NCBI GenBank assembly: GCA_017444525.1
Contig: JAFSWL010000022.1
Location: forward strand, 6,646 to 70,645
Length of the DNA: 64,000 bases
Direction of reading: 5' to 3'
Source: Alphaproteobacteria bacterium
GTDB taxonomy: Bacteria > Pseudomonadota > Alphaproteobacteria > RF32 > CAG-239
Positions 29,241 to 37,642 of this stretch are shown here, piece by piece. A program made the position numbers and the translations under genes. The notes beneath the pieces were generated by a model that did no database searches, was not told the origin of the DNA, and was given only the letters and a program-made list of their open reading frames with translations. Each line of letters begins with the position of its first letter. The stretch's first letter is position 1.

Positions 29241-32200
29241 CTATAATAACTCCGGTACATCGCCGTCCGAGCTGCTCTCAATAGACGGAGCAGGTTGTGT
29301 CGGTTGCGGCGGAGAAGTATATTTTGGTGTCGACTGCGGCTGCGGACGAGATTGCGGAGCCGGTGCACTGGCCGGACGTACATTGCTTTGTCTGCTACCG
29401 TCATAAGTTACCTCTGCCGAACCGCCCTCTCCGGATTCGCCATCAGAGAATGTTACGGCATCTTCTCCGTTATTTCCACCGCTCACACGCGAGCGACGCT
29501 TATCACGTTTAATACTATTCAGCCACAAATCCTGATTAGGATATATGATGATACGCGTACCGGCCGGAACGTAAGCCACAGAACGAATCCTTTCTTTACG
29601 TTTCATTATATCGTTAATGATTTTTGTAATTTGATCATTAACCTCATCTCTGGCATCTTCCGCCGCAGCGCTGCGTGCATCTTGGGTTGTAGTAGTACCG
29701 TTGGCATTTTGTGTGGTGGTTGAACCTTCGCCACGCGCCATCGCAATATTAACCAAACCTTGCAATGTTGTGGAAACAACAGGCAATGCATAGCGTTTCA
29801 TCAACTGCTCGTCGAGATAACCGATTACACCTGCTCTGCCTTGAGCATCTGCAGATTGAGCACTGCTCAATGTCCATTGCGATCCGTCCGGACGGATCAA
29901 ACGAGTCCATGTTATGCCTATTTTAACAGCGCCTCCGCTATCACCGGCCATATCGCCGCCACCGGATAATTGCCCGATAACGCGTGAACCCGCCGGAATG
30001 ATGATATTGCGCCCTTCTTCGGCAAACACATTTCTCTCGACTATAGCCGTAATCGGAATATTATCACTCAATCCTTCCGAAGCGTAAACCGAACGCGCCA
30101 ATACTGCCGGAATTCCCTTATCTTGTAAGATCATCTCACTCATATCAACACGCCAAGTAGATATATTCTGACTTCCGCCCCAGCCGTCTTCTTCATAGCC
30201 GGTAAAACTTGCCGGATTATAATTAGAATCAGCACTCGGTAATTCACCAACGGCTATTTGCGAACGACGTATCCTCTGCATACTTTGCAATGCGGCAATT
30301 CGCTGCGGATCGTACCTTTCTCCCGGACCATGCCCGCCTCCGGGGCCTACATTCGGTTTTTCTTTATGGTCATAAGCATTCGGCATAAATATACCCTGCT
30401 GTATAGGCGATATTGACTTATCTTCAACCGTACCGATTTGATTATAGTTCTTATCAACCACTGAGCCGTCCGGACGGGCAAAGCCCACAAGATCATTATC
30501 TTTCCATACCTCACCGTTCTCATAAATTTCACCGAGAATATCCCCTTCGGGACCAATTGCTATACCGACAATTCGATTACCGCGTCCCCGATGCGGGCGA
30601 GATGTTACGACTGAACTTTTTGCTTGGGCTTTTACATCATCCGGTTCAACCGGCCTTACTCTTCTATAACTTGTTTTTTCTCTTTCTTCGTCTTGTCGTA
30701 CGGGAGTAATATAATATTGATACGGGGTTGCCCGAGCTATTTCATTGTCATCGGTATCAAAAATCAAGCCGGCATCCTTCAAATAACCGATATTCTTGCC
30801 GTCTCGACTTACAACAGTACCGTTCAGCAATAACTCTCCGACCACATTATAACTGGCATCTCTGACTAAATAATCGCGATTGCCGCGCGCCACCACTTCG
30901 CCGCGCCTATCTACAACAAAACCTCTGTCCATTTTGCCGAGTTTACTGCCGACCATACTGAGAACTGTGCCGTCTTTGGTTAAATATCCATACACAATAA
31001 AGTTTTCATCATACATATAGAAATCATACAAAGCATAACCGATTGTTTCACCTTCAAATTCTACACTGCCGTCAAAATTGACATTACCGACTATCTTACC
31101 GCCGGTATTTTTAACCAGCCCCGCATTATCAACCATTCCCAAAAACTCATTACTATTGCTGTAAGCTACTTTATAGCGCATTACATTTCCCAATTCCTTT
31201 TTGGAAGCAGAAACAACATCGCCGTCAGGCTGCATATATCCGATTATTTTATCATTATTGTCGACAACTTTGCCGTTTGCCAATACGTGGGCAAATAATC
31301 TGTTTTCAAAATCAATAACCGGCTCCGGCAGAATAACTCCGTATTGTTTACGATGTTCCTCATCGACAATAATCCCCTGCCGATTGACACAACCTATATT
31401 CTTGTTGTTAATATCCTTACCCTGTGCGCCGCTTAGCGTACCGACAAAATTACCGTTATAATCTATCAATCCGTGTTGTGATACGGTATATCCTATATAA
31501 TTGCCGACATCAGATACGGCTTGTCCGTTCGGCAAAATATGTCCGCTTATTACGTCATGATGATCGATTATGTCGCCGTTACCATCGACTACACCGATAA
31601 CCGCACACTTATCATTGACAACCGGAGCAAACGGAACCAATTTACCAGTTACCGATTTGTTATTATCCATAACATATTCATTATATATCACCCGACCGGC
31701 AATTTCTCCATTGGTACCGATTATCTGTCCGTTATTGTCGGTATATCCGATTAAATCACCTCCGGTATTTAAGGCTATCAATTTATTGCCGCTAAAACCT
31801 TTCATCGGTGTTGTCAAAGGAGATAATTTATCTTTAGCTGCTACTACATAACCGCCCGGAATTACCTTGTATGCAATTTCTCCCGACTTATTCAAAATCA
31901 AATTACTGTTTGCAAACTTACCGAGTGAATCTCCGTTGTAATCCAAAGCATATCGCGGGTTCAAAATCTCGCTGACAAAATTACTGTCGTCGTGTACGAT
32001 GCCTGATTCGGTCAAAACCGTACCTTTTACCGGTCGATATAGAGCTCCGTTCGGATTTATATATGAATACATTACTCCTTCCGGTCCATAAGTTGCAGAA
32101 AGTGAATATCCCGAGCCGATAACTTTTCCATCTGCCGACATAACATAGCCGAACGGAGAAATACGAACTTTACCGTTTTTATCGCTAATATTGGCATCAA

Positions 32201-36400: not shown

Positions 36401-37642
36401 CTTTGTTGTAATGGTTCCGTCAGGATTCATGTGACCGATAATATTACCGTCGGCATCAACCACATCTCCGTTAGGCATAACCACTCCGATAACATTGCCG
36501 TCAGCATCGGTTACAACTTCACCGGCTTTTGCCACATGACCGATAATATTGCCGTTAGCATCAATTACGTTACTGTTTTTATCCAAATGACCGATTACAT
36601 TACCATCCGTATCAACCACACTTCCGTCCGGCAAAACTTTACCGATAATCTGCCCGTTGGCATCAACAACTATACCTGCTTCAACCGCTTTTCCGATAAC
36701 TTTTCCATTTGAATCGACAACCGTACCGTCAGGCAACATAGTCCCAATTGCATTGCCATCAATGTCATACGCTACACCATTGGCATCGACATAACCGATG
36801 ACATTATCGTTTTCATCCATAATCAATTTGCTGTTGGCGGCAACACCAATGATATTACCTTCAGAGTCAACAATCATACCATCCGCATTAACTCGACCGA
36901 TGACATTGCCCTTACCGTCAGACACATTACCGTTTTCATCAATGGCACCTATAACTTTTCCATCCGGACCAATGGCATAACGGTAACCACCAATTGCAAC
37001 ACCGCTACTTGGAACGGCCGCAACTATATCTGTTTCGCAAAAATTACAATTTTCTTTTGTAACTGCACTGCCGCGTACAGTTATCTCGTCGTGCTTGGCA
37101 TTTTGTGCGGATATATTTGTTTCATGCCATACAATCTTAAAATTGCTTTGTACATTTCCGGCAACACTAGGCACCCATTTGGTAGTAACCATACAGGTTA
37201 AATTGCCTCGCAACTCCTTATTCTGACAATTGCTTGAATCATAAGAAAAGCCATCAAACGGAGCATCTTCCAATTCTACCGACAAAATACGTATTTCACG
37301 TTTGCCATTGCTGCCTATTGTCAATACATTTGTAGCTTCGTTACCCAATATAATCTGACCCATATTAAGCTCAAGCGGTGACAAAGTAATGGGACGCTCA
37401 TCATCTTCTGTTTTATCGAACTCAATTTCATTCGGAATTTCTTGATTTTTAATGTTAATATCCGTTTCTGCATCAATACCGCTATCATCGACTATTGTTG
37501 CCCTTTCTTCCTCTTGCGTATCGGCTGTTGCTAGCATAAGAGTAAAGAGGAAAGTCAACAGCGCAATTATGCCGATAATCAAGATAATCTTATCGGTTTT
37601 TTTGACATATCTGTCGGCTCTTGTTAACGGACCTTTACTCAT
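33401..37642 (-). CDS. 1413-aa membrane-anchored repeat protein encoded between virB9 and virB10
   Basis: Short basic N-terminus, one TM helix (aa 19-38), an Ig-like beta segment (aa ~85-195), then ~1200 aa of 17-residue repeats (e.g. PDGTVVDSNGKVIGKAV / EAGIVVDANGQIIGKVL). The start abuts the virB9 stop. Its stop TAG lies 2 nt from the virB10 ATG, with AGGAGG inside its last codons. Confidence 0.85.
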   Translation of the reverse strand: MSKGPLTRADRYVKKTDKIILIIGIIALLTFLFTLMLATADTQEEERATIVDDSGIDAETDINIKNQEIPNEIEFDKTEDDERPITLSPLELNMGQIILGNEATNVLTIGSNGKREIRILSVELEDAPFDGFSYDSSNCQNKELRGNLTCMVTTKWVPSVAGNVQSNFKIVWHETNISAQNAKHDEITVRGSAVTKENCNFCETDIVAAVPSSGVAIGGYRYAIGPDGKVIGAIDENGNVSDGKGNVIGRVNADGMIVDSEGNIIGVAANSKLIMDENDNVIGYVDANGVAYDIDGNAIGTMLPDGTVVDSNGKVIGKAVEAGIVVDANGQIIGKVLPDGSVVDTDGNVIGHLDKNSNVIDANGNIIGHVAKAGEVVTDADGNVIGVVMPNGDVVDADGNIIGHMNPDGTITTKQIIGKRGGQAQMVYDDAGNIIGYVDENGNVRDFNGNLIGHVDENGNIIDKNGKIIGRVSDEWHDLALDENGNVIGYIDDENLVHDNNGNLIGYVDESGSIIGNKPKVTVLGSVGDKAKLIIDENGVIIGYIDENGIAHDLNGTVIGHVDENGNVLDENRNIIGYQREVAVDANGNPIGYIDADGNVYDFDGNLIGHTDENGNIIDENGNAIGRKSDIRIALDKNGKIMGFVDEKGVVHDFDGAFLGTTDEKGQLIRRDYSGDIVGRTGEAEELVVDENGNVIGYINKDGNVRDFNGNMIGHVDENGNIVDGNGNIIGVRGDEALIAYDDAGHVIGYVDKNGLVRNDKEIIGIVDANGNIRALGRRIIGGTIDKLLLPITPAGELLGTINNRGEITDQQKVIGKIRPDGLITDMSGAKILARGVRQGYIVNWGCDYSLKLDKDGLVRREGKETGYKIYPDGTVWTPEGVFAGRTMMTGSVYDNECSYIGEASADGYVRDVNNQEIGCLNPDGTVLDLEEPKIKGHLVRRNFVLSATTWKPMGVLDESGLLRNESGEAVGCADSYGDVYDVDGVYIGRVSDAKYGYGFDGKPLGTVDQTGHIALSDGKSAYVSVNNLLVGRNNKIYGYAVPEINIVADSSGHKIGHLFPDGLVYDQIGAVVDNINSGDIGYYNGIVGKNIRPAYVVDTSGNLLGKVNYDLSVVDYKGSKIGQIDAKGYMFDKTGRLVAGVVKQGSVRGYDGAYLGYVVSTGKVIELENVKDGSKQKYRRGEVTGKVIPDGHILNSDKIVGEVLPEGVMSDVYGNPIGMTNSLGMIVGANRKEIAAMLPGGGNSSNLVLLQSGAVINSAGEVVGTAAPNGEYYDTKHIMSGKTLSDGKVISGSGKFLGEVISGDIVIGNDDTLKGIVGFDGKIYYNGTIIGKILTDALAIDTQNNIIGHVYTIGNTILSNNGEYVGRLSANGRVVSGQNNEVGYLKSNGSFIDVDKNVSGYSLPEVARNRRN
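33440..36980 (-). repeat. intragenic coding repeat array (17-residue units, ~55-residue super-repeats)
   Basis: Crisp repeats run from ~35.3 to 36.98 kb, with the DENG-encoding motif CCGTTTTCATC recurring on the plus strand. They become degenerate toward the 3' end. An exact 25-mer is shared at 35514-35538 and 36297-36321. Confidence 0.85.

Follow-up and report, generated by a model that had tools for sequence, protein, structure and literature searches.

Can VirB10, the protein that bridges the two membranes in a type IV secretion system (T4SS), be encoded in two pieces? To our knowledge, no T4SS component other than VirB10 extends all the way from the inner membrane to the outer one, and every characterized VirB10 homolog that we know of (A. 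tumefaciens VirB10, TraF, TrwE, CagY and DotG) holds its anchor and its barrel on one chain. In current models, ATP consumption at the inner membrane is sensed by VirB10, whose continuous chain then opens the channel in the outer membrane. The question is raised by a 64,000-nucleotide stretch of an alphaproteobacterial genome (RF32 lineage; assembly GCA_017444525.1, contig JAFSWL010000022.1, positions 6,646 to 70,645), referred to below as the window, in which two adjacent minus-strand genes, here called A and B, lie between virB9 and virB11 in a run of T4SS genes. The original prediction, made before any database search, was that an ancestral giant VirB10 had been split into an inner-membrane-anchored repeat arm (A) and a barrel-bearing repeat arm (B). 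A fused single open reading frame (ORF) was sought in related genomes and found, and we now place the probability that A and B together are one VirB10 of a chromosomal T4SS, in two pieces that arose by fission of a giant VirB10, at roughly 75%.

Anchor and barrel are encoded by adjacent genes

The two genes and their parts are given below with profile-match E-values and, where available, the ratio of nonsynonymous to synonymous substitution rates (dN/dS), which was computed against a 97%-identical ortholog; lengths and positions in proteins are in amino acids (aa).

33401-37642, minus strand: gene A, the proposed inner-membrane-anchored half of the split VirB10; 1413 aa; Bflower_2 1.2e-72 in 11 stretches; dN/dS 0.071
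37520-37642, minus strand: A aa 1-41, basic tail MSKGPLTRADRYVKKTDK, predicted to be cytoplasmic, and single transmembrane helix (hydropathy, alignment)
37028-37390, minus strand: A aa ~85-205, immunoglobulin-like (Ig-like; ASH / choice-of-anchor-D-like) domain with four invariant cysteines (alignment)
35363-36970, minus strand: A aa 225-760, regular array of 17-aa beta-hairpins (motif spacing, DNA copies)
33431-35362, minus strand: A aa 761-1404, degenerate beta-hairpin array (AlphaFold2 model); dN/dS 0.066
33401-33430, minus strand: A C-terminal tail PEVARNRRN and stop, holding the AGGAGG Shine-Dalgarno sequence at 33407-33412 (sequence)
29241-33398, minus strand: gene B, the signal-peptide- and barrel-bearing half; 1385 aa; Bflower_2 3.5e-39, TrbI 5.5e-32; dN/dS 0.066
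33321-33398, minus strand: B aa 1-26, predicted Sec-type signal peptide (MLRIVKTAQKILFLAGVLLPLKGYT/A) (hydropathy, ortholog motif, model)
30732-33320, minus strand: B aa 27-889, degenerate beta-hairpin array (motif enrichment, model); dN/dS 0.061 for aa 27-990
30567-30731, minus strand: B aa 890-944, charged proline-/arginine-rich insert (gap in the profile alignment to the single-ORF protein P0157)
30429-30566, minus strand: B aa 945-990, last hairpins before the linker (aligned to hairpins at P0157 aa 1717-1759)
30132-30428, minus strand: B aa 991-1089, linker with the motif GGGxGxGERYDPxR (alignments; motif common to the P0157 single-ORF subgroup)
29520-30131, minus strand: B aa 1090-1293, VirB10/TrbI barrel (Pfam TrbI, PF03743, 5.5e-32, 111.6 bits against a cut-off of 35)

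By its barrel and by its operon position beside virB9 and virB11, B is a member of the VirB10/TrbI family. Among proteins of known structure in the PDB, the barrel matches ComB10 (2bhv, 1.3e-20, or 5.6e-31 with a profile) and also CagY, TrwE, TraF and Xanthomonas VirB10, and B aligns straight through the ComB10 region that matches the two-helix antenna projection (outer-membrane pore). The NCBIfam models for ComB10 and VirB10 score 2.4e-33 and 1e-23, below their strict equivalog cut-offs. The bitopic topology of the family, with tail and helix on the barrel chain, is lacking in B on its own and is found only when A and B are taken together. By hydropathy, a single segment of A is strongly hydrophobic (aa 15-41, mean hydropathy 3.0). 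It is preceded by basic residues and followed by an acidic stretch, so that under the positive-inside rule the N-terminus of A is predicted to lie inside; B has no segment of transmembrane grade by the same measure. This bears out the expectation that the upstream protein supplies the short cytoplasmic N-terminus and the single inner-membrane helix that the barrel protein is missing.

The leader of B is not a membrane span, because its hydrophobic core of 11 residues is too short. An AxA-type site sits one residue before the sequence EITAIDFNG, also in orthologs whose leaders are otherwise unrelated, and the leader is thus predicted to be a cleaved signal peptide. An AlphaFold2 model of B aa 1-340, built with an ortholog alignment, has a predicted local distance difference test score (pLDDT) of 88.8 and a predicted template modeling score (pTM) of 0.80; it shows the leader as a helix at aa 2-17 and the first strand from aa 28, within EITAIDF. 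The corresponding model of the last 330 aa of A (pLDDT 88.7, pTM 0.83) has strands up to model residue 320, so that the hairpin array reaches to about 10 residues from the end and only PEVARNRRN is disordered. Both models are uninterrupted hairpin arrays with ~17-18 residues per hairpin, and as they show hairpins right up to the cut on both sides, the cut separates hairpins that have scarcely any spacer between them.

The Ig-like domain of A is marked by ten invariant residues in the N-terminal-module alignment described below (P89, G100, F132, C139, C150, W156, P158, W172, C199 and C202). Its profile matches stay below the cut-offs, both for NCBIfam choice_anch_D (5.7e-4) and for Pfam ASH on the orthologs. 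The domain family is very large, with 10,434 matches in an exhaustive profile search, most of them in proteins of up to 7259 aa with 7-36 tandem copies.

Both arms are hairpin arrays of the beta-flower family

The original prediction had pointed to one degenerate glycine-rich motif in the C-terminal half of A and the N-terminal half of B. The motif is real in both genes: for [DN]xxGxx[ILVM]G there are 35 copies in A, where shuffled sequences give 1.4, and 9 in B, where they give 0.9. The shorter Gxx[ILVM]G is present in 43 copies in A and 29 in B, with 7.9 and 6.3 in shuffled sequences. It is, however, not confined to the C-terminal half of A: the arrays of A cover aa ~225-1404 with a period of 17 aa, and the N-terminal array that had been recognized in B continues beyond its presumed end, with hairpins running on around the insert at aa 890-944 to aa ~990 (~30429). 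That insert has no counterpart in the single-ORF form of the protein, and its conservation among orthologs is low (0.32).

Pfam assigns the repeats of both proteins to the beta-flower families, with Bflower_2 (PF21785) at 241.3 bits in A and 133.6 in B (cut-off 38) and Bflower (PF21784, clan CL0395) at 118.4 and 32.8 bits (cut-off 25); weaker, overlapping DUF3659 and RHS_repeat matches accompany them, and TrbI is matched in B only. The [DNEQ]xxG hairpin-tip motif of the beta-flower fold is present in both A and B. As described by Durairaj et al. 2023 (PMC10584680), this fold consists of short hairpins with [DNEQ]xxG tips that form shallow 4-, 5- or 6-fold barrels, and it has no PDB analogue (Pfam PF21784-PF21786). 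The proteins described there are mostly small, single domains of ~100 residues, some of them lipoproteins, whereas A and B carry tens of hairpins in arms of ~900-1200 residues inside a core protein of a secretion system.

A Foldseek comparison of both arm models with the PDB gave no global match (TM-score at most 0.18), and the resemblances to Rhs/YD shells and propellers were no more than local. We also considered A as an RHS/YD-repeat protein and rejected this; its RHS_repeat and YD_repeat matches are short (aa 585-616), no RHS core or toxin domain was found in it with Pfam or NCBIfam, and the Foldseek matches to Rhs shells are local, with TM-scores of at most 0.15.

Repetition at the DNA level is seen only in A at aa ~237-735, as copies of 92-142 nucleotides (nt) with 60-80% identity, spaced at multiples of 51 nt, and the hairpin copy number differs among A orthologs at aa ~510-690, where their conservation is lowest. 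Similarity between A and B in DNA is merely 60-70% over at most 84 nt. Tandem Repeats Finder reported no repeats at 29000-38000, because outside A aa ~237-735 the repeats have diverged too far in DNA. A unit hidden Markov model built from the regular hairpins of A was tried for counting the units of B and discarded as too specific for degenerate units.

Relatives with one giant virB10

The search with A found 1010 homologs, and these were, after ~35 A orthologs, mainly proteins of 2000-2470 aa with both repeats and TrbI. Those single-ORF proteins that are at least ~2000 aa long align over 92-100% of A. In total, 79 proteins longer than 1900 aa (most of them 2180-2470 aa) have beta-flower repeats and TrbI together, and most begin with the N-terminal motif of A. 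At three single-ORF loci, the genes read virB8, virB9, a giant virB10 (2213-2331 aa) and virB11, with no A-like gene.

The correspondence at the N-terminus is not one of repeats. In an alignment of nine single-ORF proteins with N-termini of the A family, the first ~215 residues of A match column by column, with 12 invariant positions including the four cysteines, and the module common to both comprises a tail motif (SSSEQYVKKSNR versus THSDRYVRKTNR), a helix, an acidic spacer and the Ig-like domain. At the other end, B aa 989-1313 aligns with single-ORF aa 1760-2085. Proteins such as P0176 (in GCA_017962565), P0158 and P0212 thus have the same N-terminal module, repeats, linker, barrel and operon position as A and B, but differ in being one ORF of 2000-2470 aa without internal leader, NRRN tail or EITAIDF. 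By hydropathy, their N-terminal hydrophobic segment is the only one, and neither EITAIDF, LPEVAxN nor an internal hydrophobic segment occurs in any of the 79 TrbI-bearing proteins above 1900 aa. A subgroup typified by P0157 is nearer to the split proteins in VirB11 distance, in N-terminal-module identity and in the linker motif GGGxGxGERYDPxR. In profile comparisons, the arms of A and B score 546 and 437 against the single-ORF family and 400 and 374 against each other, the latter being the lowest of all comparisons.

A conserved split, probably with a single origin

The search with B found 329 homologs, and the best 120 of these, at 39-97% identity, all have beta-flower repeats and TrbI; they are mostly 1380-1425 aa long with a few up to 1767 aa, and those that are named come from Alphaproteobacteria metagenome-assembled genomes (MAGs). 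Three loci, at 53% and 39% identity, have the gene order of the window, in which virB8 and virB9 are followed by a gene for a repeat protein (1261-1353 aa in these loci) and then by virB10 and virB11. Scanning one genome per species gave 306 relatives, from which the best-matching 80 loci were kept, all of them from rumen or gut MAGs and one named Candidatus Scatocola faecipullorum. B was of the signal-peptide-bearing type wherever its N-terminus was present, and in each of the ~70 of the 80 loci with enough upstream sequence an A gene ended just before B.

Nearly all of the A proteins in these ~70 split loci end in ...EVA(R/K/Q)NRRN, the arginine codons of this tail read GGAGG, or nearly so, and in most loci lie 7-9 nt upstream of the start of B, and all complete B genes start with a leader followed by the near-invariant EITAIDFNG; the leader sequence varies between lineages with its AxA-type end constant. 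In most loci, A and B are -1 to +5 nt apart. In a tree of VirB9 and VirB11, the split genomes form a single group with 100% support, and their shared junction features point to one origin. The original prediction had allowed that orthologous loci might show the two genes to be anciently separate, each with an N-terminal anchor of its own. Within this clade the separation is indeed ancient, yet B carries a signal peptide in place of an independent anchor, and the single-ORF relatives keep one chain.

In complete split loci, A is 1099-1814 aa long and B is mostly ~1400 aa with a maximum of 2318 aa, and the lengths of the two arms do not co-vary. The longest B proteins (2081-2318 aa in loci L068, L071, L078 and L086) stand beside an A of ~1400 aa, which amounts to ~3500-3700 aa of VirB10 per protomer, and in another subgroup of split genomes A is short (1099-1102 aa) and B measures 1448-1749 aa.

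The junction in the window reads ...AAC AGG AGG AAT TAG AG ATG, with the stop of A at 33401-33403, 2 nt between the genes and the ATG of B at 33396-33398, and the AGGAGG in the arginine codons of the tail of A lies 8 nt before that ATG as the ribosome-binding site of B. A and B are in different frames. The sequence therefore agrees with the first description of the locus, in which the repeat fields were separated only by a stop, 2 nt, a start and a signal-like peptide in another frame. The regions flanking the cut are conserved above the arm average of ~0.6, at 0.76 for the last 30 residues of A and 0.76-0.77 for B aa 31-90, and part of the conservation at the end of A is due to the overlapping ribosome-binding site. 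Both genes are under purifying selection, and the dN/dS values of the repeat arms (0.06-0.09) are like that of the barrel (0.064).

We rejected programmed frameshifting or read-through as a conserved mechanism for joining the two products. In the frame of B, a TAA lies 18 nt upstream of its ATG, no slippery heptamer is found in the window sequence between this TAA and the stop of A, and the frame offset differs among lineages; as the intergenic gap varies among split loci, there is no fixed frame relation for recoding to use. Eight loci (L015, L017, L018, L020, L023, L030, L059 and L069) have a 3-nt gap with the ATG of B in frame with A. Read-through there would fuse the chains with the leader in mid-chain, and this arrangement is probably incidental, as most other lineages are out of frame.

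A further locus, L088, was at first sight a second, independent split. Its protein P0182 is interrupted by a gap in a metagenome scaffold, where a run of N at 5963-5973 makes a virB10 of the single-ORF type look like two genes of 276 and 1906 aa, with no leader, ribosome-binding site or conserved ends. Automated counts of split genes should allow for such cases.

Fission and its alternatives

Because every characterized VirB10 has anchor and barrel in one chain, fission is the best reading of these data; from an unsplit ancestor it needs one event, whereas fusion would need an ancestor without an anchor. The proposed direction rests mainly on this single-chain state rather than on the trees. 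Taken in a broad sense that covers both a clean cut and a partial duplication with complementary loss, two routes that are not distinguishable here, fission is in our judgment very probable.

Several observations count against it. The TrbI tree, with ComB10 and CagY as outgroup, is rooted between the split and the fused proteins, with bootstrap values of 40% for the split and 73% for the fused group, and the proximal VirB8 copy, under reciprocal paralog rooting, also places the root between the split and single-ORF groups; the distal VirB8 paralog points the other way, nesting the split clade inside the single-ORF group with 64%, and distances are saturated in the VirB8 rooting. No close outgroup VirB10 was recovered with the profile of the N-terminal module, a search that was swamped by multi-copy ASH/Ig-domain proteins (the 10,434 matches mentioned above), and ten single-stretch N-terminal matches that we checked were either short repeat fragments without TrbI or giants of the fused type. 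Nor could the cut be mapped onto the single-ORF protein by profile-profile alignment, with whole arms or with sub-segments; the scores of all repeat registers lie within ~10-20% of the top one and single out no breakpoint. A and B together have 2798 aa in the window and at least ~2550 aa in the other split genomes, more than the single-ORF proteins with a complete N-terminus (2015-2473 aa), and the halves are therefore not a simple bisection. The tail of A and EITAIDF have left no trace in the 79 single-ORF proteins. Finally, contact between the two arms is a prediction, and their failure to co-vary in length argues against full-length pairing and favors a local joint.

One alternative is a partial tandem duplication of the giant gene, or of its 5' part, followed by complementary loss. 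The barrel would have gone from the upstream copy, and in the downstream copy a signal peptide would have replaced the anchor module, so that A and B would share part of their ancestry instead of being the two sides of a single cut. This route would account for the alignment of the A family to positions 1-1514 of the single-ORF profile and of the B family to 829-2085, an overlap of ~685 residues, as well as for the excess length of A and B over any single-ORF form and for the split genomes in which a near-giant B (2081-2318 aa) accompanies an A of ~1400 aa. The overlap is uninformative, however, as all repeat registers score about alike, and the lengths are explained by changes in copy number, which are visible in the variable block of A. 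The arms moreover score higher against the single-ORF family than against each other, the opposite of what recent paralogs would show, and we consider the duplication route unlikely.

The reverse direction, in which an ancestor with two genes (an anchored repeat protein and a signal-peptide VirB10) was fused in the sister group with loss of the leader and the tail of A, is rather improbable. The trees of TrbI and of the proximal VirB8 root between the groups, so the ingroup alone gives no direction, and it is general knowledge that bacterial gene fusions are commoner than fissions. Such a fusion would nonetheless start from a VirB10 without anchor, unlike the characterized homologs, and would have recreated the canonical order of tail, helix and barrel by chance. 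The single-ORF proteins hold no relic of leader, EITAIDF or NRRN and no internal hydrophobic segment, the distal VirB8 nests the split clade within the fused group, and the P0157 subgroup is closer to the split clade than other single-ORF proteins are (VirB11, N-terminal module, linker motif).

It was also suggested at the outset that a repeat cassette had spread between neighbors, in which case A would be an independent periplasmic repeat protein that merely shares a mobile repeat with the VirB10 next to it. The same Pfam repeat family does occur in the adjacent genes, and units have been amplified recently in the regular block of A. The suggestion is not borne out by the comparison of the two genes, which share no long stretch of similar DNA and whose cross-gene profile scores are the lowest of all, and the N-terminal module of A, which is not made of repeats, is homologous to the N-terminus of single-ORF VirB10; we regard it as very improbable. 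Least credible of all is an assembly frameshift or a decayed VirB10. An artifactual split does exist in a related scaffold (L088), but the split of A and B recurs with ribosome-binding site, leader and flanking motifs in ~70 independent assemblies, the two ORFs are intact over 4.2 kb each with a dN/dS of ~0.07, and the control break is a run of N without these hallmarks, so that the assembly frameshift that had been a concern at the junction is excluded.

Proposed mechanism

We propose that the ancestral giant VirB10 would have consisted of a cytoplasmic tail, one helix, the Ig-like domain, ~1600 residues of beta-flower repeats, a linker and the TrbI barrel. The break in its gene would have occurred within the repeats, in the common ancestor of a single clade of these gut and rumen Alphaproteobacteria, to which the window belongs. 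A would then have kept the tail, the helix, the Ig-like domain and ~65-70 hairpins, and gained a C-terminal tail whose arginine codons form the ribosome-binding site of B, while B would have kept ~53 hairpins, the linker and the barrel, and gained a cleavable Sec signal peptide. In the cell, A would be anchored in the inner membrane, its arm extending into the periplasm; B would be exported by Sec and lose its leader, and in the outer-membrane core its barrel would assemble with VirB9 and the VirB7-like lipoprotein. Non-covalent binding between the two hairpin arms, most likely between the conserved end of A (KSNGSFxDxDKNVxGYxLPEVA) and the EITAIDFNG strand of B, may restore the connection between the two membranes, and tight translational coupling (virB9 and A abut, A and B are 2 nt apart, and B and virB11 10 nt) may help keep the pieces in balance. 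That the anchor and the pore are joined only by a non-covalent joint of two giant arms, or are not mechanically joined at all, is a tentative proposal that we hold to be doubtful though well within reach.

Comparison with known systems

B resembles the canonical VirB10 proteins (A. tumefaciens VirB10, pKM101 TraF, R388 TrwE and H. pylori ComB10) in its TrbI-type C-terminal barrel and in the position of its gene between virB9 and virB11, and A and B jointly have the short tail and single N-terminal helix. Unlike them, anchor and barrel are on two polypeptides, the barrel chain has a signal peptide instead of an anchor, the short proline-rich linker is replaced by ~2100 residues of beta-hairpin repeats and an Ig-like domain, and the total is ~2800 aa compared with ~380-450 aa.

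Two giant members of the family come nearer. CagY (Cag7) of H. pylori, with 1927 aa, has a large repeat region N-terminal to its barrel, and the barrel matches by profile at 6.6e-14; it differs in being a single chain and has no Pfam repeat family in common with A and B. The CagY repeats do not belong to the beta-flower type and are altered by recombination in the course of infection. DotG (IcmE) of Legionella and Coxiella belongs to the VirB10 family, has a membrane anchor, long internal repeats and a C-terminal barrel, and works beside the anchored periplasmic protein DotF. It differs from A and B in its pentapeptide repeats and single chain, and DotF is not derived from DotG; the likeness drawn here is one of described architecture. 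Searches of the literature on VirB10 or T4SS with RF32, on VirB10 with DUF3659 and on VirB10 fission brought up neither a naturally split VirB10 nor beta-flower repeats in a T4SS.

The split clade and its single-ORF relatives offer a natural comparison for testing whether the VirB10 chain needs to be continuous and for mapping how the halves find each other. If the proposal is correct and secretion works in these bacteria, the covalent bridge between the two membranes, which is thought to carry the ATP-driven gating signal, would be dispensable, and beta-flower arrays could serve as a self-associating periplasmic scaffold. The beta-flower fold gains its first clear place inside a known machine, and gut and rumen Alphaproteobacteria are seen to carry a conserved chromosomal T4SS of unusual complexity, apparently undescribed so far.

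Neighboring genes

On the minus strand, the genes follow in the order virB4, six ORFs, virB8, a 62-aa lipoprotein gene, virB8, virB9/CagX, A, B, virB11 and an autotransporter gene. Those around A and B are as follows.

51973-54402, minus strand: virB4, upstream in the T4SS gene run
41228-51891, minus strand: six consecutive ORFs of 1707, 455, 381, 518, 262 and 234 aa, with no Pfam or NCBIfam match
40450-41292, minus strand: second VirB8 (Pfam VirB8 match)
40115-40303, minus strand: putative VirB7-like lipoprotein, 62 aa, lipobox L-S-A-C
39347-40099, minus strand: VirB8 nearer A (Pfam VirB8 match; the two VirB8 copies score 7.4e-22 and 1.6e-11)
37643-39331, minus strand: VirB9/CagX homolog, 562 aa (Pfam CagX 2.8e-11)
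28256-29230, minus strand: VirB11 ATPase, 324 aa (Pfam T2SSE; orthologs 322-329 aa)
24069-28136, minus strand: autotransporter, 1355 aa (beta-domain 1.2e-39)

The TAA stop of virB9 immediately abuts the ATG of A, and from the stop of B to virB11 the sequence reads TAG GAGAGGTAAA ATG, with 10 nt between the genes and a GAGAGG ribosome-binding site before the virB11 ATG at 29230. The longest mechanical virB11 ORF (28256-29404, 382 aa), which would overlap the end of B by 164 nt, is an over-call.

The 62-aa lipoprotein encoded between two diverged virB8 paralogs is probably, by its lipobox and position, the VirB7 equivalent; a lipoprotein gene of 58-70 aa is found at the same place in split and single-ORF loci, and the trio of VirB8, VirB7-like protein and VirB8 recurs in related loci. 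The six ORFs without a match may include VirB6-like and other lineage-specific T4SS parts, and large unannotated ORFs also lie upstream of virB8 in related loci. The VirB9/CagX homolog is long, and its C-terminus has a weak match to SPOR (aa 485-560, E = 3.7e-4, just at the Pfam cut-off). SPOR domains bind peptidoglycan, and a VirB9 that binds the wall next to giant periplasmic arms may be connected with them.

Directly downstream of virB11, the slot of the autotransporter is taken in the 97%-identical relative L089 by a 1418-aa version of that protein, and in more distant loci unrelated genes follow virB11. In one genome of the single-ORF type (L007), two adjacent mTERF genes (PF02536) lie at 25063-26642, ~8 kb downstream of the T4SS genes; the mTERF family is largely eukaryotic and organellar.

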